22,195 nucleotides of DNA from an uncultured Pseudanabaenaceae cyanobacterium (GCA_938015405.1 CALLPZ010000256.1:1-22195); one strand, 5' to 3'. Counted from the stretch's first letter, positions 7,531-19,356 are shown. Notes: a model not told the origin generated them from the letters alone. Made by a program: numbers and translations.

Positions 7531-8403
7531 CTAATCCTTTTCCGCTTCTAGAGCAGCTTTGGCTTCCTGAAGTCTCTGCTTGTGCTCATCACTAACTTCG
7601 GGGTACTGGAGCTTGAGCGCCTTGAGGCGATCGCTAATAATCTCTGCAACGGTCCAGCGCATAAACTTCTTATCGTCCGCTGGAATCACATACCAAGGAG
7701 CAGCCTCGGTGCTGGTATTGCTCAACATGTCCTCATAGGCCTTTTGGTAGTCATCCCACAGGGCACGCTCCTTAAGGTCAGAATGGGAGAATTTCCAGTT
7801 TTTCTCGGGCCGATTGATGCGGTCTAAAAAGCGCTTCTTCTGCTCAGCTTTGGAGACGTTCAAGAAAAACTTGATCACCATGACGCCATTATTCGTCAGA
7901 TACTCCTCAAAGTTGTTGATTTCCTGGAACCGCTGCTTCCAAATCCCCTTGCCAGTTTTGAGTGCCTCCGGCAGCTGCTGCCCAGCCAAAAACTCGGGGT
8001 GGACTCGCACCACCAAGACCTCCTCGTAATAGGAGCGATTAAAGATGCCGATCCGCCCCCGCTCGGGCAGAGCTTTCATATTACGCCAGAGGTAAGTGTG
8101 GTCACGTTCCTCGGCAGAGGGAGACTTGAAACTAAACACCTGACAGCCCTGGGGGTTCACCCCAGACATCACATGTTTGATTGTGCTGTCCTTGCCCGCC
8201 GCATCCATCGCCTGGAAAACCAGCAAAACGGAATGGGTATTGGAGGCATAGAGGACATCCTGATACTTGGCTAATCGCTCCACACCTACTTTGAGCGCAG
8301 CCTTGGCTTCCGCCTTATCCTTAAACTTGCCGCTTTCTTGGGTCTTATGTTTTTTGAGGGAAACTTTGCTACCGGGCTTGATTAGAAAGGGAGAGGAAGC
8401 CAT
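7531..8403 (-). CDS. PPK2-family polyphosphate:nucleotide phosphotransferase
   Basis: 290 aa. Walker A-like MDAAGKDSTIKHV, Walker B/lid regions (IFNRSYYEEVLVVRVHP) and characteristic PPK2 C-terminal segments (WYVIPADDKKFMRW). Confidence 0.88.
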   Translation of the reverse strand: MASSPFLIKPGSKVSLKKHKTQESGKFKDKAEAKAALKVGVERLAKYQDVLYASNTHSVLLVFQAMDAAGKDSTIKHVMSGVNPQGCQVFSFKSPSAEERDHTYLWRNMKALPERGRIGIFNRSYYEEVLVVRVHPEFLAGQQLPEALKTGKGIWKQRFQEINNFEEYLTNNGVMVIKFFLNVSKAEQKKRFLDRINRPEKNWKFSHSDLKERALWDDYQKAYEDMLSNTSTEAAPWYVIPADDKKFMRWTVAEIISDRLKALKLQYPEVSDEHKQRLQEAKAALEAEKD

Positions 8404-8526
8404 AGAGTGGGGGCGATCGCGTCAGAACTAACCGCAGTCTAAGAGCTTCGACAGGAACAAACAGAGATTCGTCAGCTTTCTTAGTGCAAGTCTGCCACCC
8501 AAGCAAGACTCGGCCAGCAAGAGTCC

Positions 8527-9042
8527 ATGATTAAGCGACGTAGACCCAAGCAATGGTTGATTGATGGACCGGCAGGGGTGGGCTTGATGACGATCGCCCT
8601 GCTGAGCATCGTCGTCGCCATCAACAACATGGTGCTGTCAGCAACGCTAAAATGCGATCGCAACCTCGACCAAACTATTAGCTGCCAAATCACAACCCGG
8701 CTTCTCAACGGTCAAGAGCAACTCACCCTCCATCCCGTGACCTCAGCCAAAGCAGACAGCATCCCCAATACCTACAAAGAAGGCAAAGGTTACAGCTACC
8801 TCCACCACGTGGCTCTCCATACCCCCACCAAATCTGCCTTGCTCCCGCTACCTCGCCCCAATGCCCAAAGCCAGGCTGAGCTCACAACCGAAATCAATCG
8901 GTTCATCAACTCCAGCCAGACTCAATTCAACCTGACCCTTCACCCCAGTACCAAGACTTATCTAGGCAATGCCTTCATCGGCCTCATCTTAATGAGCATG
9001 GGCATTTGGGGTGGAATCTTCCTCAGTCGCGGCATGGATTAA
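8527..9042 (+). CDS. hypothetical membrane protein (two terminal TM helices)
   Basis: 171 aa. N-terminal TM (GVGLMTIALLSIVVAINNMVL) and C-terminal TM (FIGLILMSMGIWGGIFL) flank a polar domain of about 110 residues. Ends 53 bp upstream of the lyase-like gene on the same strand. Start codon uncertain. Confidence 0.45.
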   Translation: MIKRRRPKQWLIDGPAGVGLMTIALLSIVVAINNMVLSATLKCDRNLDQTISCQITTRLLNGQEQLTLHPVTSAKADSIPNTYKEGKGYSYLHHVALHTPTKSALLPLPRPNAQSQAELTTEINRFINSSQTQFNLTLHPSTKTYLGNAFIGLILMSMGIWGGIFLSRGMD

Positions 9043-9095
9043 ATCCCCTCAGCGCCATCAATTCCTGATTCATTTCCCAGCGTTCGCACAACTCC

Positions 9096-10016
9096 ATGCC
9101 ACTCTCTAACTGCCCTAAACCTCATGCTCGAACCTCTGCCCTGGCCCTGGCATTCCTAGGGAGTAGCCTCATCTTCTTAAGCGCATGCCACTCCCAAAGA
9201 CCAGCCAACAATACAAGCCATCGCTCCGAGACCGTTCAATCAGAAATGACTGAGGAGCAAACAGACCAGGCTATGGCAGCCTCCGTTCTATGGGCTGACA
9301 ACTTCCAAGGAGATTGGCAGTCAAACTGGCAGATCCAAGCAAAAGGCAAATGGGGGGAGGAAAACTTTGAGGTCATGGGCGATCGCGACAACCGCTTTGC
9401 CCGGCTTCTACGCGTCCACTATCCCGCAGGCTCTGCCAGCCCCAAGGTCAGCCGAAACCAAGACAGTCCATCCGGTGGCGGGCAATTTTATGGCACCCTC
9501 GGCATCCCTCCCCAAGATCGACTCAAACTCAGCTATAACCTTCGTTTTCCAGAAGATTTTGACTTTGTACGAGGCGGGAAATTACCAGGCCTCTACGGCG
9601 GCAAGGGAGCTAGCGGCGGCAATATCCCCAACGGTCGTGATGGATTTTCAACCCGGTTGATGTGGCGGGCAGGCGGTGCAGGGGAGGTCTATGCCTATCT
9701 CCCCACCAGCGAAGCCTACGGGACTTCTCTGGGCCGAGGCAGCTGGCATTTTCGTCCCGGCCAATGGCATCACATCGAACAAGAGGTTCAGCTCAATCAG
9801 CCTGGCCAGAAGGATGGCTGGGTTCGCATCTGGATGGATGGCCGCCTTGTTCTGGAGCAGAAAAATTTAGTTTTTCGCACGACACCGGAGCTGAAATTGA
9901 ATGGGGTGTTCTTTTCAACATTCTTTGGCGGAGGCGATCGCAGTTGGGCCACCCCCCAAGACACCCATATCGATTTTGCTGACTTCCAAGTCAGCAAAAT
10001 CAGCAAGACTCCCTAG
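9096..10016 (+). CDS. secreted lipoprotein, concanavalin-like polysaccharide-lyase (PL14-like) family candidate
   Basis: 306 aa. Lipoprotein signal (ALALAFLGSSLIFLSAC). Gly-rich motifs GGKLPGLYGGKGASGGNIPNGRDGFSTRLMWRAGGAGEVYAY, then WHF...W.HIEQEV.LN.PG..DGW..IWMDG. From memory these resemble the bacterial/viral 'polysaccharide lyase' beta-sandwich family. Family assignment is unverified. Confidence 0.5.
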   Translation: MPLSNCPKPHARTSALALAFLGSSLIFLSACHSQRPANNTSHRSETVQSEMTEEQTDQAMAASVLWADNFQGDWQSNWQIQAKGKWGEENFEVMGDRDNRFARLLRVHYPAGSASPKVSRNQDSPSGGGQFYGTLGIPPQDRLKLSYNLRFPEDFDFVRGGKLPGLYGGKGASGGNIPNGRDGFSTRLMWRAGGAGEVYAYLPTSEAYGTSLGRGSWHFRPGQWHHIEQEVQLNQPGQKDGWVRIWMDGRLVLEQKNLVFRTTPELKLNGVFFSTFFGGGDRSWATPQDTHIDFADFQVSKISKTP

Positions 10017-10028
10017 GCTTCTAAATCG

Positions 10029-12062
10029 CTACTGCTCCAGCAAAGCAGCCGATTTGGGGTCCAGAACCTGAGTCAGGTCATCCGCCGGCATAGGCATCAG
10101 TCGAAGACTAAAGTCCTTGAACACCAAGTTCTCTTGATCCGATGGTGGCGAGAGCAGCTGAGGCACTGCCGTAACAATGGAATCAGGGATGACCTGATCA
10201 AAAGCATCAGATTGAGCAACCGCGTCCGAGTTCAACCCAGCGAGCGTCACCCGTGAAGCCTGTTGTTGAGACACAACAGTCTGGGGGACAAGCACCACCG
10301 TACGGCCTTTACCCTGCCCCTTAACCGTTACGTCACCCCGACGAATTTCTAAGGGCTGCCGAAACTCCAACTCACCAATCGGCAAACGCACTTCTAAATG
10401 CTTAGCCTGAGACTGATTAATCAGGGACTGCAAGGCAGCAGCATCATCCAGACCATCATGGGGAACCACACCGTAATCAATGGCTTGAACCCGAGTGATG
10501 CCCTGGGATGAAGCTTGGTATTGGCTCTCCAGCTGCCAGCCCTGCAAATCGGCAATGGGGTTCATCACGCCATTTAGCCAGAGCACACCGATGATAAAAC
10601 TCGCCACCTGGGTCCAGAGCAAAAATCGCGACAGATTGACTTTCAGCCCTAACTTCCAAGCTGCACCTCCAGCATCAATACTCTGGTTACCTCGGTTGGT
10701 CCATTTCTGCTTAACCAGATTCATCTGAGTCCAGATTTTAACCAGTGAGCCCAGCCACTGGGTCAATAGCAAAATCGGCAAATGCAGCAGCTTGAGATGA
10801 GACGGCCGACCCGCAAAAATCGCCAGCAACATCGCCAGACGGCTCAGAATAATCCAGCTACCAATCAACTGAAAGCTGACCCAATGGCCCTGCAAAGCAG
10901 CAATTAGCAAAAAGCTAGGACTGAGCAAAGAGGTCCACATACTCAGCCGCTGATCCAGCAAGCTATACCAGAGGAAGCCTCCCGTCTTTCTGGGCCCCAA
11001 CGCCAATGCCCGGCCATTATTGCGCAGCATGTTGCCGAACCAACGGCGCATGTTCTGGTAAGAGCGTTCCACCACTGAACCGGACAGGGTCTCAATGGAA
11101 TAGACCAGCACATCAGGGATGTAGAGCATGTCATAGCCCTGACGCAGCAGCCAAAACCAAGTGCTCTTGTCATCCCCCGAAAGGAACTTGAATCGTCCCC
11201 ACAACCAATCGTCAAGCTGGTCATTGCACAGTTGTTCGGCAAAGCCAGGGTCGAGAGCCGCTTCCGCCCGAAAAAGGGAAAAACGTCCCGTCAAGCACAT
11301 GACCTTACGATCCAGCGAATCAGAACACATCTGATAGTGGCGCTGGGCAAAGCGCATGTGGAACCATTCCGAGAAAAAGGAGGAGCCTTTGACCACAGGC
11401 AATTCATCCGTGGTCAGCGCGCCCATTTTAGGAAACAGGGTAAAGAAAGGCAGGCAGCGCAGCAGGGTCGCTGGCGTCAACTCAGAATCCCCATCCATCA
11501 AAGCAATCACACCATGCTTCGGGAAACCCTCCTCAGACAAGACCTCCAACCCATCTGCCATGGCCTTGCGCTTGCCATCCTTTTGAACCATCAAAATCAG
11601 GTTGATGGACTGGAGCTGGGGGTCAGTCTCTTCCAGGATTTCGCGAATGCGCTGGTTTTCGGCGTTGCTACTGCTGTTGGCTAAGACTGTCAGTCCCTGG
11701 GGCAGTAACTGCGCTTCCCGAGCGATCGCCCGAAAAACTCGCTCAGTAATCCAGTCCTTCTCTTTATAAGTGGGCACCACCAAACAAACCGGCGGCAAAG
11801 CTTCCAGGGGAACCTGGCGCGCTCGCTTACGCCAACGGCGAAAGGTCCAACGCAAATAGAACTGGCCGCGCACCCAGCGCAGCAATAACAGTGACCAGCG
11901 CCAACTGCCAATCACGCCAAAGCCCACAAAGGCAGGCAGCTCCCAAAACATGCCGTACAAAGCCTTGAGATGCCAAATATGATTGAAGGCCAACCACATC
12001 ACCCAGGCAATCAGCCCTAGATGCAGCCAAGGCAATAGTTTCTGCAATCTTGCTTTCATCAT
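10029..12062 (-). CDS. processive family-2 glycosyltransferase, polysaccharide synthase of the NodC/HasA/Alg8/chitin-synthase type
   Basis: 677 aa. Two N-terminal TM helices, then GT2 motifs: PTYKEKDW, QKDGKRKAMADG (GKRxA motif), ALMDGDSELTP (DxD), LSGDDKSTWFWLLRQGYDMLYIPD (compare SGDDRxLT...Y.PdA of NodC/HasA) and SYQNMRRWFGNMLRN (QxxRW-type). A multi-TM C-terminal channel region follows, then an extra roughly 190-aa soluble domain. Confidence 0.82.
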   Translation of the reverse strand: MMKARLQKLLPWLHLGLIAWVMWLAFNHIWHLKALYGMFWELPAFVGFGVIGSWRWSLLLLRWVRGQFYLRWTFRRWRKRARQVPLEALPPVCLVVPTYKEKDWITERVFRAIAREAQLLPQGLTVLANSSSNAENQRIREILEETDPQLQSINLILMVQKDGKRKAMADGLEVLSEEGFPKHGVIALMDGDSELTPATLLRCLPFFTLFPKMGALTTDELPVVKGSSFFSEWFHMRFAQRHYQMCSDSLDRKVMCLTGRFSLFRAEAALDPGFAEQLCNDQLDDWLWGRFKFLSGDDKSTWFWLLRQGYDMLYIPDVLVYSIETLSGSVVERSYQNMRRWFGNMLRNNGRALALGPRKTGGFLWYSLLDQRLSMWTSLLSPSFLLIAALQGHWVSFQLIGSWIILSRLAMLLAIFAGRPSHLKLLHLPILLLTQWLGSLVKIWTQMNLVKQKWTNRGNQSIDAGGAAWKLGLKVNLSRFLLWTQVASFIIGVLWLNGVMNPIADLQGWQLESQYQASSQGITRVQAIDYGVVPHDGLDDAAALQSLINQSQAKHLEVRLPIGELEFRQPLEIRRGDVTVKGQGKGRTVVLVPQTVVSQQQASRVTLAGLNSDAVAQSDAFDQVIPDSIVTAVPQLLSPPSDQENLVFKDFSLRLMPMPADDLTQVLDPKSAALLEQ

Positions 12063-12095
12063 AATTTCTCCTAGGTCAACCTAATCTCGGGCAAC

Positions 12096-13694
12096 CTATT
12101 GGGCAGCACTAGGAGAAAACGCACTCAAGAAAGGCAACTTCGACTGGGAACGCTGGGTCCCAAAACTCAAACTCGCCATCTGGCCAACGCCACAAAAACG
12201 ATTGGCAGCCTGAACATGGTTCTCAGGAGCAAGACGCACTGTCACTCGCGCGAGAGCCTGCTGTTGCATATGGGCAGGTAGCGCAGGCAGAAGCCGCTGC
12301 TCTCGGTTTTGCACCACCGACAAACCACTCACCGATTCAATCAAATCCACCTGACCCACCACCGGGGCCTTCTTATCCTTCAAATAAACACTGACCGGCT
12401 GGCTCTCATCTATCCGCTCAGCATCCTTGCTGGTCACGAGAGTCTCAACCCAGAGATCCTCACAGTCCAGAAGCGTCAACAATTCATCGGAACGCTCCAC
12501 CTGCTCTCCAGCATCGTGGCTCGTCTGATACACGACACCGGCGAAGGGAGCAGGTAAATCACCCAGGGGCTGAATCGGATTGAGGCCTTGACCATTGACC
12601 TTGGCCATCTGGCTTTTGAGCTGCTCTACCTTGACCTGTAGCCCAGGCATCTTCGCCATGCTGGTTTGGTAGTTCTGTTGAATTTTCTGCTGTTGCTGCT
12701 GAAGGCTCAAGCTGAGCTGCTGCTGGCGCAGCTGATCCCCCACAGGCTGAGATGAAGGCGCTGATGCGGCGATCGCCATCTGCTCCTGGGTCATCTGAAC
12801 CTTCTGCTGGGCAGCCGCAAGGGCAGCTTGTTGAGCAATGATTTGATCCTGGGCAATCTCCCAGTCTGCCGCCAACTCATCCACCTTTTGCTGAGCAATG
12901 AGTTGCTGCTCCCAAAGGGACTTGTAGCGTTGATGAACTTGTTTAGCCGCCTTGGCCTTCGTTTTAGCCTCGCTTAACTTTGCACTGGCCAGCTCCACAG
13001 CTCCTTGCTGCACGGCTTGCTGCTGACGCAATTGCTGTAGCTCCAGCAGGCGCAGCTGCTCATCCTCTTCGCGCTGCAGACGAACGCTGTCCTTCGACAT
13101 CGCTGCCAACTGACTGGCCTGGACATTCAAAGACTGAGCCTGCTGCTCCAGCATGGCAAGCTCCTGCTGCTGAGCGGCGAGCTCTAAAGATGCAGCTTGA
13201 AACTGCAAAGCCATCTCCTCCGGAGACGCTACTCCACCGACAAAGCCAGAGTCATCGGCAACGAAATTAATCCGAGCCAAGGGTTGGCCGGCACTCACAC
13301 TCGCACCAGGACGAGCAAAAAAGTCTTGAATCGTGCCTCGCTCAGGTGCTTTAACCGTAATCGTGCGCCCATTGACAACGGCATAGTCTGTCGTGACATG
13401 GAGCCAGCGATAGCTGAGGGAACTCCCCCAAATCCCTAAAGCAGCACCACCACATCCCAAGGCAGCCAACCCAATTAAGCCTCTCTGGACAACGCGCTTA
13501 CCCAGAAAAACGGAGGAGCTGGAAGCATCCCCCTGAGACGATAGCGAATCTGAGGCCTCGGCATTCACCAAAGGACTGGAGAAAGGAGGCGACACCACAC
13601 TCACGGCTTGGGTCTCAACCCCGACATCCGATCTGGCATAACCGCTAGATGGAGTCAGCGGATCGCGTCCGTGGGGGTTAGGAGCAGCAGTCAT
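12096..13694 (-). CDS. HlyD-family membrane fusion (periplasmic adaptor) protein
   Basis: 532 aa. Ser-rich disordered N-terminus of about 65 aa, one TM (GLIGLAALGCGGAALGIW), the lipoyl/beta-hairpin signature YAVVNGRTITVKAPERGTIQDFFARPGASVSAGQPLARI, a Gln/Ala-rich coiled coil of about 230 residues, and a C-terminal beta-barrel segment (PAPFAGVVYQ...). The gene's stop (12096) lies 33 bp upstream of the GT2 start codon (12062), which suggests one operon. Confidence 0.8.
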   Translation of the reverse strand: MTAAPNPHGRDPLTPSSGYARSDVGVETQAVSVVSPPFSSPLVNAEASDSLSSQGDASSSSVFLGKRVVQRGLIGLAALGCGGAALGIWGSSLSYRWLHVTTDYAVVNGRTITVKAPERGTIQDFFARPGASVSAGQPLARINFVADDSGFVGGVASPEEMALQFQAASLELAAQQQELAMLEQQAQSLNVQASQLAAMSKDSVRLQREEDEQLRLLELQQLRQQQAVQQGAVELASAKLSEAKTKAKAAKQVHQRYKSLWEQQLIAQQKVDELAADWEIAQDQIIAQQAALAAAQQKVQMTQEQMAIAASAPSSQPVGDQLRQQQLSLSLQQQQQKIQQNYQTSMAKMPGLQVKVEQLKSQMAKVNGQGLNPIQPLGDLPAPFAGVVYQTSHDAGEQVERSDELLTLLDCEDLWVETLVTSKDAERIDESQPVSVYLKDKKAPVVGQVDLIESVSGLSVVQNREQRLLPALPAHMQQQALARVTVRLAPENHVQAANRFCGVGQMASLSFGTQRSQSKLPFLSAFSPSAAQ

Positions 13695-14276
13695 AATATT
13701 AAAAATGAATTAATCGGCCTGAGCCAAACCAGCTCAAAACCGCAGGGATACACAAACGGACAATACAAATGACCCAATTTAATAGGAGTCAGGGGTAACA
13801 GCACAACCAAACCGCAAATTTTGTGGATTGATTAAACACCGAATCTCTCCCAACTTTGCTCCCAAACAATTGAGCTAGCCATATCTATATCCAGCAGAGG
13901 AGCCCCAAACGACACTTGCGTGAATCTCACCAACACTAAGCCATTTCAAGGGAAAGTTCTTCAGCGAACCAGCGGATTTCACGGAGGATTCATAGCAGCC
14001 AGAAATTTATAAGAAGCTGCAGTAAAGTTTTATTTTTATCCGGCCAGATTAAACAAAAATTAACTTCCTATGCCAACAGAGCAATGACGCTGTAAACGAG
14101 GAAAAACCACAGCTTGACGAGGAATGGACAGAAATACCTATTGCCAATCTCCTCGACATACTACAACATAATACAAGCGATAAAAGAGCCAATAAGCTAG
14201 GCCCCGCAGAACATCATCTAGTCTGATTTTGCTTTGACGGATGGTGGCCTAGACAACTGTAAAAGGAATAACAATC

Positions 14277-15458
14277 ATGGGCTACCAACAGGTCCCTTTT
14301 AAGACTGAAAAACCCGTCCTTTCTTGGGCGAACCATGCTCTGAGTTCTGCTGAGATCACAATGGCCCAGAATGTCGCCTCGCTGCCATTTGTGTTTAAGC
14401 ATGTCTCCCTCATGCCGGATGTGCATTTGGGGAAAGGCGCATTGGTCGGGTCTGTCGTCGCGACGAAGGATGCGATCGTTCCCGCTGCTGTAGGTGTGGA
14501 TATTGGCTGCGGCATGTGCGCCATCAAGCTTCCCTTCCAGGCCAGTCAATTGGAGGGCAAACTCAAAAACATTCGCAAGGATATTGAGGCTGCGATTCCG
14601 ACAGGCTTCAATGAGAATAAGGACGTGGAAAAGTCCGTTCAGAACTGGTCCGGATGGAAGAGCTTTAAAGAGCTCCATCGGGGAGTCCAGGATCGACATA
14701 CCAAAGCGGAGCGGCAGTTAGGAAGCCTTGGCGGTGGCAACCACTTTATTGAGGTTTGCCTAGATGAGGCAGATCAAGTGTGGCTGATGCTCCACTCCGG
14801 CTCGCGCAACATAGGCAATAAGCTGGCCCAGTGCCACATGAGCACTGCCAAGAACTTGGCAAAGCTCTCCGAGGAGAAGCTGCCGGATCTGGATCTGGCC
14901 TACTTCGTCAAAGGTACAGCAGAGTTCGAAGCCTATTGGCGCGATCTGCAATGGGCTCAAGCCTATGCTCTATTCAACCGTGATGTGATGATGGCGCGTT
15001 TCAAACGCATTGTTGAGCAGCATTTAGCCGGAGGAAAGCCAACGAAGCCGATCCTCTCGGTCAATTGCCATCACAACTACGCAGAGAAGGAAATCCACTT
15101 CAACGAAGAGGTGTACGTCACTCGTAAGGGAGCCGTGCGCGCTCGCGAAACGGATTACGGCATCATTCCAGGCTCCATGGGGGCAAAATCCTTCATTGTG
15201 AAGGGCAAGGGCGATCATGCGAGCTTCTGCTCCTGTAGCCACGGAGCTGGAAGATTAATGTCCCGTTCCAAGGCGAAGCGCACCTATTCGCTGGATGATT
15301 TGATCCAGCAGACAGAAGGAATTGAGTGCCGTAAGGATAAGGGGGTATTGGATGAAATTCCTGCGGCTTATAAGCCGATTGAACAAGTGATGGAGAATCA
15401 GAATGACTTGGTGGAGGTGGTGGCAACCCTGCGGCAGGTCGTTTGTGTGAAAGGCTGA
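14277..15458 (+). CDS. rtcB: RNA-splicing ligase RtcB (3'-phosphate/5'-hydroxyl RNA ligase)
   Basis: 393 aa, near-collinear with E. coli RtcB as I recall it: LPFVFKHVSLMPDVHLGKGALVGSVVATKDAIVPAAVGVDIGCGM, GGGNHFIEVCLDE, NCHHNY, SCSHGAGR, and C-terminal LVEVVATLRQVVCVKG. Confidence 0.95.
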   Translation: MGYQQVPFKTEKPVLSWANHALSSAEITMAQNVASLPFVFKHVSLMPDVHLGKGALVGSVVATKDAIVPAAVGVDIGCGMCAIKLPFQASQLEGKLKNIRKDIEAAIPTGFNENKDVEKSVQNWSGWKSFKELHRGVQDRHTKAERQLGSLGGGNHFIEVCLDEADQVWLMLHSGSRNIGNKLAQCHMSTAKNLAKLSEEKLPDLDLAYFVKGTAEFEAYWRDLQWAQAYALFNRDVMMARFKRIVEQHLAGGKPTKPILSVNCHHNYAEKEIHFNEEVYVTRKGAVRARETDYGIIPGSMGAKSFIVKGKGDHASFCSCSHGAGRLMSRSKAKRTYSLDDLIQQTEGIECRKDKGVLDEIPAAYKPIEQVMENQNDLVEVVATLRQVVCVKG

Positions 15459-15477: not shown

Positions 15478-16239
15478 TCAAGGGCGGAGCCGATTCTTTG
15501 TATTACGGGCTAGTGATCGCAGCTTTTCTGACAGGGGCGGGTCACGGTAGAACTCGATCGCCAAGCCTCGAAATCCCCCATCGTCCAACACCTCAAATCC
15601 ATGGGGCTCCCCCCCTCTGTAGTACATCAAGCTAGGCGAATTTAATCGGTTCCCCTCCAGTTCAATGTCACCCGCCAGCCCCAGCATCAACACGCCATGG
15701 TCACGATGCTGATGAACCGGCACAGCATCACCTGCCTCCAGGGTCAAAAAGAAGCAGTGCAAGCGCTTTAGGCTAGACGTTTCCCCATCAAAGGCGAGGG
15801 TTTTCCCTTCTACATCACTCCCATGCTGGGCAATTGCCTCGCTAGGACAAGCAATGGCTGGCTCCATCAAGGAGCCCTCCAGCTTCTGACGTCTCGCCCC
15901 CATGAGCTTCACCCTAAGGGTGATTGCAGAGACATTGCCTAAGTCATCGATGAGACATTCCGTTTGGGCGGGTTGGTACAACACAGAGCCGGGCTCTGTG
16001 AGCTGGCGATCGCCTCTCGAAGAGGAGACCTTCACTCCCCCCCGCAGCAGCACATAAAGCTGGTCATCATCGCTTAACCCAGGCCGCGAAGTCCCAGGCT
16101 TCACCAAACCGACTTCCAAGCGAGACAGATTCAGAGGCTCGCAGGAGAGCAAAGGCTGGGCCTCTGTCCCAGCCTCGTCAACTCCCAGCGACTCTAAATC
16201 CAGAGGCTGAATATGACTGCTTTGAACGTGGGATTTCAT
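15478..16239 (-). CDS. bicupin-domain protein
   Basis: 253 aa. The C-terminal half carries both cupin motifs (PVHQHRDHGVLMLGLAGDIELEGN and YYRGGEPHGFEV). The N-terminal half is a degenerate second cupin. Its start codon (16239) is 30 bp downstream of the stop (16269) of the secreted-protein gene on the same strand. Confidence 0.65.
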   Translation of the reverse strand: MKSHVQSSHIQPLDLESLGVDEAGTEAQPLLSCEPLNLSRLEVGLVKPGTSRPGLSDDDQLYVLLRGGVKVSSSRGDRQLTEPGSVLYQPAQTECLIDDLGNVSAITLRVKLMGARRQKLEGSLMEPAIACPSEAIAQHGSDVEGKTLAFDGETSSLKRLHCFFLTLEAGDAVPVHQHRDHGVLMLGLAGDIELEGNRLNSPSLMYYRGGEPHGFEVLDDGGFRGLAIEFYRDPPLSEKLRSLARNTKNRLRP

Positions 16240-16268: not shown

Positions 16269-17534
16269 CTAATCAATGATCGCCGGAGCCAGAGGCGCTC
16301 TTGGCCTTCCCCCACCACCAATACGATTGGGACCATTGTTATCCACAACATGGAGTGAATTCATAATCAACCGCAGGTCTTGCTCCCAGGGATGACCAAT
16401 CCGCTGCTTCCAGCCAAATTTCCAATCCCGTTCGAAGGAGCGGAGAACATTACCTCGGGGCGATCGCTCCACCGCCAGACCATAGAACTGCCAGGCCGTG
16501 TCATCCACCACATAGGCGCCATAGTCTTGCATGGTGCGGGCCACAATCTTGCCAGGCTCTGTTTTCAATTGGTCAATATCAAAATCTGGTTTGAGGGCCA
16601 GCAAGGCTCCCATTTCTAGTTCGGGAACAGTGCCACCATATTCCTCTGCCGCATAGCTATCCGCCACAGTGGCAGGCCAGCGATAACCATTGGTGCCATC
16701 CTGGTTATAGGCGATGTGGTGCTTGGCCCAGATGATGACTTTGAGGGCATGGGGAATCACTTTTTTCCCCGGTGCTAACTCTCCCACACGGATCGTGCCG
16801 CCCAGACTGGATAGTCGGCTGCCGCCATGGGCACCGGAAATGCCGGGACCATAGATATCCACAAAGGGAGCATCCGTCTGCTGATCACCAAAGTCATATT
16901 GCGACGTGGCATAGTTGTATCCACTACAGCGATGAAAGGGCTGGGTTTGATACAGCGATCGCCCATCCGCCAGTAAGATTGCCGCCGCATTATTGGGCGT
17001 AGTCCATTGTTCATGGTCAACGGAGAACCAGGGCGGAATCGGGACCTCGATCAATTTTCTGCCTTCCTTCTCGCAGCGCGCCTGGCCTTTTTCTAGGGCG
17101 GCTCGCGACCAACCTTTGAAATTCTCATAGACCGGTGTCAGCGGTGCCCTGGGCTCCATCACAATGATGTCTTCGTCCACGCCAGGCGTACTTTCTGGGC
17201 GGATCTGAATGCCTGATGGGACATACTTAGCCCTCCGTCCAATCGGCATATTCCAAATGCTATCGCAAGAGAAGGGCTGCAAAAGTTTGCTGCGCCGGCC
17301 CGGCCCACAGCCAGCCTGAGCCACGAGGGTTTTAGAACGAGCAAGGGACTGAGCAACAGCATCGCTGGAGCTGCGATCCACGGTTGTGCGGCAGGCTTGC
17401 AACACAAGCGCCCCCAGCAGCAAGGTTATCCCGGTTCGCCATAAAGACTTCAACTTCAAATCGACTCCAATCCCGTTTAAAGAATTCAATAAAAGCAACC
17501 CATATGGCCTTAGCCTAGACAACACAAAGGGCAA
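16269..17534 (-). CDS. secreted or lipid-anchored protein of unknown function (possible carbohydrate-active enzyme)
   Basis: 421 aa. The signal/lipobox region is ...LKLKSLWRTGITLLLGALVLQAC. In-frame TTG codons at 17459 and 17453 would give a classical signal peptide MKLKSLWRTGITLLLGALVLQAC, so the true start may lie downstream of the ATG at 17534. The mature part is rich in aromatic and Gly residues, with no motif I can assign. Confidence 0.5.
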   Translation of the reverse strand: MPFVLSRLRPYGLLLLNSLNGIGVDLKLKSLWRTGITLLLGALVLQACRTTVDRSSSDAVAQSLARSKTLVAQAGCGPGRRSKLLQPFSCDSIWNMPIGRRAKYVPSGIQIRPESTPGVDEDIIVMEPRAPLTPVYENFKGWSRAALEKGQARCEKEGRKLIEVPIPPWFSVDHEQWTTPNNAAAILLADGRSLYQTQPFHRCSGYNYATSQYDFGDQQTDAPFVDIYGPGISGAHGGSRLSSLGGTIRVGELAPGKKVIPHALKVIIWAKHHIAYNQDGTNGYRWPATVADSYAAEEYGGTVPELEMGALLALKPDFDIDQLKTEPGKIVARTMQDYGAYVVDDTAWQFYGLAVERSPRGNVLRSFERDWKFGWKQRIGHPWEQDLRLIMNSLHVVDNNGPNRIGGGGRPRAPLAPAIID

Positions 17535-18575: not shown

Positions 18576-19013
18576 ATGGCTATCGTAGAGATTGAAGACC
18601 TCCGCGAAAAACGCATCGCAACTGAAGTTCTCATTGATACAGAAACCGATGAAGAACGGGCAACTGCTTGGTACTACTACCTGGATGGCAAGGTCACCTT
18701 TCCCTTTCAAGCAACCCTAGAAGGGGATGATGATGTAGAGGTGATCTCCTTGGCAGTGGAGGAGGATTGCCTCGATGAAATGAAGATGGAGGTGCGCCAC
18801 AGTGATAGCTTTGGCGAGGAACCTTTTACAGCGATCGTCATGGAGCTAGAGCCCTTAGATGCCGATGACGATAGCACTGAGGCCATTGAAGACTGGCAGT
18901 ACTGGATAGAGCGGGGCAACCGCTTAAATGAGCCAGAGGAGAGCCAGGTGGATGATTTCCCAGATGATGACTTGGATGATGAGGATGATGTTGACATCAA
19001 TGAGGATGATTAA
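18576..19013 (+). CDS. highly acidic hypothetical protein
   Basis: 145 aa, of which 52 are Asp/Glu and only 8 Lys/Arg. The C-terminus is DDFPDDDLDDEDDVDINEDD. No enzymatic motif recognised. Confidence 0.55.
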   Translation: MAIVEIEDLREKRIATEVLIDTETDEERATAWYYYLDGKVTFPFQATLEGDDDVEVISLAVEEDCLDEMKMEVRHSDSFGEEPFTAIVMELEPLDADDDSTEAIEDWQYWIERGNRLNEPEESQVDDFPDDDLDDEDDVDINEDD

Positions 19014-19194: not shown

Positions 19195-19279
19195 GCACGA
19201 TTAGCTTAGTGGCCTAAAGCATCCGTCCGACTGTTGTCGTGACGGAGGATCGTAGGTTCGACTCCTACATCGCGCTCCA
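19195..19279 (+). tRNA. tRNA-like gene with non-canonical anticodon arm (no 7-nt anticodon loop); possible tRNA mimic or pseudogene
   Basis: Manual cloverleaf: acceptor GCACGAT/ATCGCGC (one A-C mismatch), U8A9, D-arm GCTT-AGTGGCCTA-AAGC, 5-nt variable loop GGATC, T-arm GTAGG-TTCGACT-CCTAC, discriminator T, encoded CCA. The anticodon position is occupied by a 25-nt hairpin TCCGTC-CGAC-tgtt-GTCG-t-GACGGA, which is 10 bp plus one bulge and a tetraloop. Confidence 0.4.
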
Positions 19280-19281
19280 AC

Positions 19282-19356
19282 TGAAAGTTAGCTCACTGGT
19301 AGAGCATCAGACTCATAATCTGCTTGTAACAGGTTCGATTCCTGTACTTTTCACCA
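19282..19356 (+). tRNA. tRNA-Met or tRNA-Ile2 (anticodon CAU)
   Basis: Manual fold: U8A9, D-arm GCTC-ACTGGTA-GAGC, anticodon arm TCAGA-CTCATAA-TCTGC (U33, CAU, A37), 5-nt variable loop, T-arm ACAGG-TTCGATT-CCTGT, discriminator A, encoded CCA. The acceptor stem is AU-rich with a mismatched 1:72 (T-C) and one GU pair. Starts 2 nt after the CCA of the preceding tRNA-like gene. Confidence 0.6.

Follow-up and report, generated by a model that had tools for sequence, protein, structure and literature searches.

A conserved cyanobacterial module of an Alg8-family synthase, an EmrA/HlyD-type adaptor and a PL14 lyase, most likely for an alginate-like polysaccharide

The described systems closest to the locus studied here are the alginate machinery of Pseudomonas and Azotobacter (Alg8, Alg44 and AlgL), the cyanobacterial cellulose system XcsA/XcsB/XcsC and the rhizobial pair BgsB/BgsA. 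In Pseudomonas, AlgL acts as a periplasmic housekeeping lyase. For the Xcs system, export via TolC has been proposed (Maeda et al. 2018, reviewed in PMC12430437), and the mixed-linkage beta-glucan synthase BgsB/BgsA genetically needs TolC (PMC13438883). Alginate lyases of polysaccharide lyase family 14 (PL14) are, according to a review, mainly from molluscs and viruses, and the chlorovirus PL14 enzyme vAL-1 is a glucuronan lyase (EC 4.2.2.14). The locus compared with these systems lies at positions 8527-13694 of a 22,195-bp stretch of DNA from an uncultured Pseudanabaenaceae cyanobacterium (GCA_938015405.1, CALLPZ010000256.1:1-22195). This stretch, referred to below as the window, is an entire contig of a metagenome-assembled genome (MAG) and has Pseudanabaenaceae MAGs as its closest relatives. 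It encodes a glycosyltransferase family 2 (GT2) synthase, a periplasmic adaptor and a PL14 lipoprotein.

We consider it probable that these three genes are the core of a synthase-dependent pathway whose product is an acidic homopolymer, most likely alginate-type poly-beta-1,4-mannuronate. Literature searches directed at a module combining an Alg8-family synthase, an adaptor and a PL14 enzyme yielded no description of one. The module does not represent a new type of system, and its synthase is already labelled Alg8 in automated annotation by KEGG and JGI. A first-pass annotation of the same sequence had described a four-gene arrangement, in which a processive synthase and a membrane-fusion protein converge on a lyase-like lipoprotein preceded by a protein with two transmembrane (TM) segments, and had suggested a hyaluronan-, chitin- or polyuronate-like and possibly uncharacterised polymer.

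Synthase, adaptor and lyase

The open reading frame (ORF) map and direct reading of the gene junctions agree with the first-pass annotation in the number and strands of the genes and in both short spacings. Four ORFs of 171, 306, 677 and 532 aa were found, coding for the two-TM protein (8527-9042, plus strand), the PL14 lipoprotein (9096-10016, plus strand), the synthase (10029-12062, minus strand) and the adaptor (12096-13694, minus strand). The adaptor stop codon TAG (12096-12098) is followed by a spacer of 33 nt (12063-12095, minus strand) that leads to the synthase ATG at 12062 and contains AGGAG 7 nt 5' of this ATG. Such a spacer is consistent with co-transcription of both genes in a putative operon. 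Synthase and lyase genes are convergent, with 12 nt (10017-10028) between the lyase stop (10014-10016) and the synthase stop (10029-10031), and no terminator-like hairpin was found in this gap.

The synthase matches PF13641 (GT2) with E 2.4e-32, the predicted cytoplasmic catalytic domain covering aa 90-343 (nt 11034-11795, minus strand). It carries the motifs GKRKA163, D190-G-D192, TTDE217, S295-G-D-D-K299 and N337-M-R-R-W341, which are invariant in an alignment of 24 homologues. The last of them, NMRRW, is an xxRW motif in which N replaces Q; the motif set seen at first pass is present. In Alg8 of P. aeruginosa, the residues D188, D190, D295, D296 and K297 have reportedly been mutagenised. 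Compared to the GT2 protein at the Alg8 position of a Loktanella plasmid cluster, the synthase shows 35% identity over 461 aa (E 2e-85) and a near-identical spacing of the DxD, GDDK and xxRW motifs; proteins of this cluster, rather than those of P. aeruginosa or A. vinelandii, were the Alg8 and Alg44 references for sequence comparison. Judged by sequence, the 677-aa GT2 protein belongs to the Alg8 (mannuronan synthase) family.

When 1.84 billion cluster representatives were searched with HMMER, 501 matched the synthase at E<1e-3; they include both shorter (about 490-550 aa) and longer (about 880-960 aa) proteins with 33-42% identity. The family is narrow and distinct from BcsA, HAS, NodC and PgaC, because it comprises only these 501 matches and comparison with the other families gave nothing or sub-threshold values. 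In NCBIfam, which apparently has no Alg8 model, the PgaC and NodC matches all remained sub-threshold, and a sequence search against solved structures gave one marginal match (E 0.1). The cyanobacterial homologues are mostly about 700-745 aa long and, where named, are called 'glycosyltransferase Alg8' or 'mannuronan synthase' by JGI. The names 'Alg8' and 'Alg44' have also been applied loosely to generic GT2 and HlyD proteins in later genome papers.

A tblastn search of plasmids found synthase homologues on replicons of the Roseobacter group and of Rhizobium, in the latter case on megaplasmids. On the plasmid of Loktanella salsilacus (NZ_CP072993.1, 172505-191824), the homologue lies in a cluster with an AlgD-like nucleotide-sugar dehydrogenase, a sugar-phosphate nucleotidyltransferase, a NosD/beta-helix protein (AlgG-like), an MBOAT protein (AlgI-like), two ALGX-domain proteins and a protein named AlgF by PGAP. 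This gene content identifies the cluster as an alginate-type operon. A Jannaschia plasmid harbours a similar alginate-type cluster, and both plasmids encode an unannotated protein of 347-350 aa without a Pfam match at the Alg44 position. A 493-aa representative named 'Alg8' (P0198) was set aside as a further reference; its contig ends just past the gene and shows no alginate context.

The model of the synthase obtained with AlphaFold2 (AF2) has a mean predicted local distance difference test score (pLDDT) of 70.6. Its best Foldseek matches are hyaluronan synthases (E 5e-13), BcsA and chitin synthases, and no Alg8 structure is among the PDB matches. The modelled fold is that of the class of processive membrane-channel synthases, in line with the processive GT2 enzyme first proposed, while sequence places it in the Alg8 family. 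Besides two N-terminal TM segments, hydrophobic segments were found at aa 373-391, 399-417, 423-441 and 481-499. Hydropathy and the positive-inside rule suggest two N-terminal TM segments, a cytoplasmic glycosyltransferase domain, two further TM segments, an interface helix and a final TM segment at 481-499. A conserved basic loop (KQKWTNRGNQ) lies together with the interface helix before this last segment.

The C-terminus of Alg8 is periplasmic. For the window synthase, the positive-inside rule and a fusion protein described below indicate that the C-terminal extension (about aa 520-677; nt 10032-10505, minus strand) is probably periplasmic as well. The extension is absent from Alg8 of Loktanella (489 aa) and Jannaschia (494 aa). 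It opens with an invariant cap motif, D536..D539-D540, and was modelled as beta strands at aa 523-592 (pLDDT about 80), followed by a disordered part at 598-643. Homologues score 22-25 bits against PF12708 (Pect-lyase_RHGA_epim), which is under the 27-bit cut-off. The extension is probably a short beta-helix-like stub, and in the window and its nearest relatives it is shorter, more degenerate and partly disordered compared to most homologues. In one protein of 777 aa (P0122, L086:259-2592), a single polypeptide combines an Alg8-like synthase core with a C-terminal PL14 domain (PF21294, E 1e-57), which takes the place of the usual extension. This fusion, found on one 2.7-kb metagenomic contig only, gives weak independent support for a functional link between synthase and PL14 and for a periplasmic C-terminus. 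Much longer extensions also occur: a metagenomic contig of non-cyanobacterial appearance (L085:8487-12880) carries an adaptor-then-synthase pair with overlapping genes and a synthase of 959 aa, and several proteins of about 880-960 aa exist (P0125-P0132).

The adaptor matches HlyD_3 (E 1.5e-15) and HlyD_D23 (E 5e-9). In its AF2 model (mean pLDDT 73), the cytoplasmic tail (aa 1-63) is disordered and leads into a single TM helix, domains of the lipoyl-like and beta-barrel types and an alpha-helical hairpin (aa 158-366; nt 12597-13223, minus strand). According to DSSP, the hairpin is formed by a helix of 105 residues (158-262) and the return helices 268-311 and 318-366, mostly with pLDDT values of 83-96. 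At 1.5 Å per residue, its predicted length is about 150 Å. The first Foldseek matches were EmrA (4tko, E 6e-18), EmrAB-TolC, MacA, AcrA and HlyD, all of them TolC-docking adaptors. Based on the model, the partner protein is an EmrA/HlyD-type adaptor, which agrees with the HlyD-type protein with hairpin and beta-barrel noted at first pass.

Neither a PilZ domain (Pfam, NCBIfam) nor an EAL domain was detected in the window adaptor, and Pfam found no domain binding cyclic di-GMP (c-di-GMP) on either synthase or adaptor. An N-terminal cytoplasmic EAL domain is present in 20 of 78 adaptor homologues (Pfam E 1e-35 to 1e-49), for example at L040:7676-9820, L060:5663-8551 and L080:5359-7611, and at 17 other loci. 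Inspection by eye revealed that the DDFGTGYSS loop is replaced in these domains, e.g. by DNFSGRELTL, and they may therefore be c-di-GMP sensors rather than active phosphodiesterases. This hints at c-di-GMP control in those lineages, where the EAL domain would be an analogue of the PilZ domain of Alg44.

The lyase matches PF21294 (Polysacc_lyase_14) with E 4e-65 and 219.9 bits, compared to a cut-off of 27. It starts with a signal peptide with the lipobox LSAC (Cys31), followed by a linker and the PL14 beta-jelly-roll (aa 102-297; nt 9399-9986). The closest solved relative is the poly-M lyase AkAly30 of Aplysia (PDB 5gmt, E 2.6e-35); matches to PL36 alginate lyases range from E 1e-11 to 2e-13 and that to chlorovirus vAL-1 (3a0n) has E 1e-7. 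The motifs GGK162LPG, S185-T-R187 and Y199-A-Y201 align with identical residues of AkAly30. Within them, K162, S185/R187 and Y199/Y201 presumably have the catalytic roles described with the structures of vAL-1 and AkAly30. The sequence firmly identifies the 306-aa lipoprotein as a bona fide PL14 lyase, so that the PL14-like assignment made at first pass stands. A lipobox is present in at least 41 of 59 PL14 homologues; a small number have RTX repeats, which makes their secretion probable. Three loci encode a PL14 protein of about 510 aa with N-terminal RTX calcium-binding repeats and no lipoprotein signal downstream of the synthase (L013:12379-13920, L018:12398-13918, L072:9110-10636). In each, a second, ordinary PL14 gene lies upstream of the adaptor gene.

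Conservation and genomic setting

A scan of one genome per species yielded 80 cyanobacterial loci with a synthase homologue of 49-77% identity. For their analysis, the window proteins served as tblastn queries and all flanking ORFs were clustered. The adaptor gene lies directly upstream of the synthase gene on the same strand in 76 of the 80 loci, and contig ends truncate the remaining four. PL14 was found within the flanks of 55 loci, usually immediately downstream and in either orientation. Apart from adaptor and PL14, no gene family occurs in more than 12 of the 80 loci. The association of adaptor, synthase and PL14 is far beyond chance and recurs across cyanobacterial orders. The module is well supported as real and widespread, with at least 80 cyanobacterial loci.

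The 171-aa protein upstream of the lyase has hydrophobic segments at aa 14-32 and 149-167, which confirms its two-TM nature, and it gave no Pfam or NCBIfam match. By tblastn, a match was obtained only in L003 (45% identity) and none in the 77 other loci; it is also missing from L001 and L002, which share the synteny from PPK2 to RtcB with the window. The conserved unit is therefore one of three genes, and the two-TM protein was rejected as a fourth component. Of the arrangement first described, the part formed by adaptor, synthase and PL14 is conserved across cyanobacterial orders, while the two-TM gene is not.

Conservation also bears on whether the gene order has functional meaning. The adaptor could be part of a pump for efflux or type I secretion that has its inner-membrane transporter encoded elsewhere, with the GT2 protein being non-processive. 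NCBIfam gave weak sub-threshold adaptor matches (CzcB, RND membrane-fusion protein, HlyD, EmrA, DevB), and JGI labels some adaptor homologues 'multidrug efflux'. However, all these NCBIfam scores are far under the cut-offs, the pair is adjacent in the 76 loci without a conserved ABC, RND or MFS neighbour, and the GT2 model resembles membrane-channel synthases of the processive type. In addition, the same pairing with overlapping genes is found in the non-cyanobacterial relative L085. We therefore give next to no credence to a pump origin, and the tie of the adaptor to the synthase that was first proposed is upheld, with no such tie to an ABC or RND pump.

A second possibility is that the lyase is catabolic, degrading external alginate or other polyuronates as food or in a competitor's matrix, and is a mere frequent neighbour of an unrelated exopolysaccharide (EPS) synthase. 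PL14 is missing from the flanks in 25 of the 80 loci, its orientation and distance vary, and the copies with RTX repeats are probably secreted. On the other hand, PL14 is adjacent in most loci with enough flank and in many cyanobacterial families, most copies are lipoproteins and not secreted enzymes, and synthase and PL14 are fused in P0122. No genes for uptake, oligo-alginate lyases or the DEH pathway are among the conserved neighbours, and in alginate and cellulose systems a glycanase is regularly linked to the synthase. A catabolic lyase is regarded as improbable on these grounds, and we retain a lyase that belongs to the synthase module.

The module (9300-13486) shares 69-73% DNA identity with L001-L003, the three closest syntenic loci, with protein identities of 59-77%, whereas the flanking housekeeping genes reach 80-86% at the DNA level and 88-96% at the protein level. 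The greater divergence of the module suggests faster evolution or replacement of a surface-polymer module at a fixed locus. The flanks are ordinary cyanobacterial housekeeping genes, coding for ornithine carbamoyltransferase, LexA, a UvrD-like helicase, a bilin reductase, PPK2 and RtcB. The adaptor gene and rtcB are divergent, and the 582-bp intergenic region that separates them (13695-14276), with a GC content of 0.48 compared to about 0.54, presumably holds the promoter of the putative adaptor-synthase operon. Scans of 8300-14400 for promoters and terminators gave fewer matches than shuffled sequence and were uninformative.

Several other features of the window were recorded. Its sole Rfam matches fall in the tRNA region 19195-19356, where two adjacent tRNA genes are found; the second is tRNA-Met according to ARAGORN, which assigns an unusual anticodon of 4 bases to the first. 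A doubtful ARAGORN call ('tRNA-???') at 7989-8064, inside the PPK2 gene, is probably a false positive. The segment 4980-6400 (~1.4 kb) has no ORF longer than 90 aa, a GC content of 0.48-0.50 and no Rfam match, and it is partly alignable to relatives at about 70% identity. The gene at 18576-19013 (plus strand) codes for a calcium-binding protein of the CcbP type (PF11535, E 7e-25) whose C-terminal tail is very acidic. A 421-aa lipoprotein-like protein (LVLQAC; 16269-17534, minus strand) adjoins a 253-aa weak cupin (15478-16239, minus strand), and both are kept in L002 (74% and 68%). The former was considered as a part of the module and rejected, for want of a match in Pfam or PDB and of any link to the module.

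Polymer identity and proposed mechanism

In six of the 80 loci (L063, L069, L070, L074, L077 and L080), a dehydrogenase gene lies between those of adaptor and synthase. The one tested, from L077, matches the GDP-mannose 6-dehydrogenase of P. aeruginosa with E 5e-118, compared to E 3e-69 for the best UDP-glucose dehydrogenase. L077 and L080 have an added mannose-6-phosphate isomerase (PMI) domain (E 2e-50). Five of the six loci encode a protein of ~1150 aa that matches A-modules of the mannuronan C5-epimerases AlgE6 and AlgE4 (E 4e-34 and 2e-31) and features RTX repeats and an R-module match, and PL14 is present in four of the six. In L074 (6472-16627) and the other five loci, the extended cluster has on one strand the order adaptor, AlgD-type GDP-mannose 6-dehydrogenase, PMI domain (where present), synthase, AlgE-type C5-epimerase with RTX, and PL14. 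By its gene content, the extended cluster looks like a full cyanobacterial alginate gene set. L063 additionally encodes a GDSL-hydrolase and RTX protein, and L069, L074 and L080 a beta-helix and PPC protein.

In a neighbour-joining tree of the synthase core, calculated without support values, the synthases of the six loci form the sister clade of the minimal-module clade that holds the window, and proteobacterial Alg8 and other relatives lie outside both cyanobacterial clades. Since the window synthase is bracketed by relatives linked to GDP-mannuronate, mannuronan or alginate is the most parsimonious product. It is also preferred over a new polymer because the sister clade adds the GDP-mannose 6-dehydrogenase, the PMI domain and the AlgE-type epimerases. 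Among the polymers named at first pass, the polyuronate is retained and specified as mannuronan or alginate, while the hyaluronan- and chitin-like options were not selected. The suggestion of an uncharacterised polymer is less likely to hold, as the AlgD, PMI and AlgE genes of the sister clade point to a polymer that is probably known and is made by an undescribed variant of the machinery.

A number of observations weigh against an alginate-type product. The bracketing depends on a tree without support values, and the AlgD-linked synthases are a paralogous clade: the Elainellaceae MAG JBHJGR01 contains both a minimal module with PL14 (L030) and an extended module of the AlgD/AlgE type (L070), so that specificity could have diverged between the two. 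No GDP-mannose dehydrogenase, AlgA-like gene, epimerase or acetyltransferase was found in the window or in most of the 80 loci; homologues of GDP-mannose 6-dehydrogenase occur in several other cyanobacteria. No gene for an outer-membrane factor is present in the contig or among the conserved neighbours. The PL14 family includes the glucuronan lyase vAL-1, and the loop Cys115-Cys124, by which AkAly30 tunes its poly-M specificity, is missing from the window lyase. Compared to the Loktanella protein at the Alg44 position, which itself has no Pfam match, the adaptor shows no similarity (BLASTP E 1.4). Given this result and the missing PilZ domain, the adaptor does not qualify as a member of the Alg44 family. 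It shares with Alg44 a single TM segment and a membrane-fusion-like periplasmic domain, and its gene lies next to an alg8-type gene, in the order adaptor then synthase. Finally, phylum-wide surveys reported neither the Alg44 architecture nor a clear alginate pathway in cyanobacteria, and the one paper that reports alginate from a cyanobacterial isolate is based on chemistry without genetics.

Some of these points would also fit another polyuronate made by the same machinery, with UDP-glucuronic acid or another nucleotide-uronate as the substrate, glucuronan or a related homopolymer as the product and a PL14 lyase of the glucuronan type. This would agree with the vAL-1 match of the lyase, with the paralogy of the two synthase clades and with background literature in which non-mannuronate uronic acids are frequent constituents of cyanobacterial EPS. 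About 4 kb upstream of the module, six Coleofasciculus loci encode a true UDP-glucose 6-dehydrogenase (PDB 4a7p, E 2e-122). As a substrate clue this gene was judged weak, because it lies on the opposite strand, 4 kb away, and in closely related genomes only. Moreover, the synthase belongs to the Alg8 family, whose outgroup and sister clade are tied to GDP-mannose and mannuronate genes, and the window PL14 is far closer to AkAly30 than to vAL-1. A glucuronan-like product is unlikely in our view, with some weight left to it, and mannuronan or alginate remains the preferred product.

From family membership, predicted folds and conserved linkage of the three proteins, we infer a mechanism in which substrate, polymer, TolC docking, lyase role and topology are all provisional. 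The Alg8-family synthase would polymerise a nucleotide-uronic acid on its cytoplasmic GT-A domain, probably GDP-mannuronic acid supplied by a dehydrogenase encoded elsewhere, and would thread the chain through its own membrane channel. The adaptor, presumably co-transcribed and anchored beside the synthase by its one TM helix, may assemble a periplasm-spanning tube via its hairpin of roughly 150 Å and hand the chain to a TolC-like outer-membrane channel, also encoded elsewhere. Adaptor and channel together would replace Alg44, AlgK and AlgE of Pseudomonas. The PL14 lipoprotein, predicted to face the periplasm, could cleave escaped or stalled chains or trim chain length, a role likened to that of AlgL (PL5) for alginate or of the endoglucanases XcsC or BcsZ for cellulose. 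For the periplasmic beta-helix stub of the synthase, contacts with the polymer, with the adaptor or with the lyase are conceivable.

Taken together, this route has not yet been described experimentally in cyanobacteria, and an alginate-like acidic polysaccharide is most likely what is made and exported. More tentatively, and short of an even chance in our estimate, filamentous cyanobacteria may widely own a stripped-down alginate machinery. In it, an Alg8-family synthase with a beta-helix stub, an EmrA-like adaptor of ~150 Å and a TolC-type channel would bypass Alg44, AlgK and AlgE, PL14 would replace AlgL, and in some lineages a degenerate EAL domain of the adaptor would take over c-di-GMP sensing from PilZ. 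If this holds, mannuronan or alginate would be a common overlooked part of cyanobacterial sheaths, mats and biocrusts, and a three-gene cassette would suffice for its synthesis. With the module, cyanobacterial EPS that is rich in uronic acids or alginate-like, the chemically reported alginate included, gains a genetic basis that can be tested, and a compact cassette becomes available for engineering photosynthetic alginate production.

Comparison with known systems

The system of Alg8, Alg44 and AlgL shares with the module the GT2 family of the synthase, as indicated by the identity to Alg8 of an alginate-type cluster given above. In both, an inner-membrane partner has a membrane-fusion-like periplasmic domain and a polyuronate lyase is encoded with the synthase. 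Cyanobacterial relatives of the module carry algD-, algA(PMI)- and AlgE-type epimerase genes. The two differ in the partner, which in the module is a complete adaptor of the EmrA/HlyD type with a predicted ~150 Å hairpin and no PilZ domain, in the lyase, which in the module belongs to PL14 and not to PL5, and in the synthase, which in the module has an additional, probably beta-helix-like C-terminal domain. No AlgK, AlgE, AlgG, AlgX, AlgI, AlgJ or AlgF is linked to the module, and c-di-GMP sensing, where suggested (20 of 78 adaptor homologues), would reside in an EAL domain of the adaptor instead of PilZ.

The likeness to a cyanobacterial HlyD-type cellulose system, pointed out in the first-pass annotation, is apt with regard to the Xcs layout. 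Both are three-gene cyanobacterial units of a GT2 synthase, an HlyD-like adaptor and a polymer-cleaving enzyme, both have no components of the BcsB/BcsC type (or of the AlgK/AlgE type), and TolC-like export is proposed for both. The module differs from Xcs in its Alg8-family synthase, which is not a BcsA and has no PilZ domain, in its degrading enzyme, a PL14 lyase and not an endoglucanase, and in its predicted product, a polyuronate instead of cellulose.

With BgsB/BgsA, the module shares the two-gene order of membrane-fusion protein and then GT2 synthase in an operon, which for BgsBA is bicistronic and for the module is presumed. As this synthase and HlyD-type pair genetically needs TolC, it supports the export route proposed here. 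In contrast to the module, the BgsBA product is a neutral glucan, c-di-GMP binds to the C-terminus of the BgsBA synthase and no linked lyase or glycanase is described. If the product is a polyuronate, the module would extend the export principle of synthase, HlyD and TolC from neutral glucans to a polyanion.

The lyase has the same predicted PL14 beta-jelly-roll as AkAly30 and vAL-1 and keeps the GGK, S-x-R and Y-A-Y positions. It is distinguishable from both as a bacterial lipoprotein encoded beside a synthase, and from AkAly30 by the absence of the Cys115-Cys124 loop.

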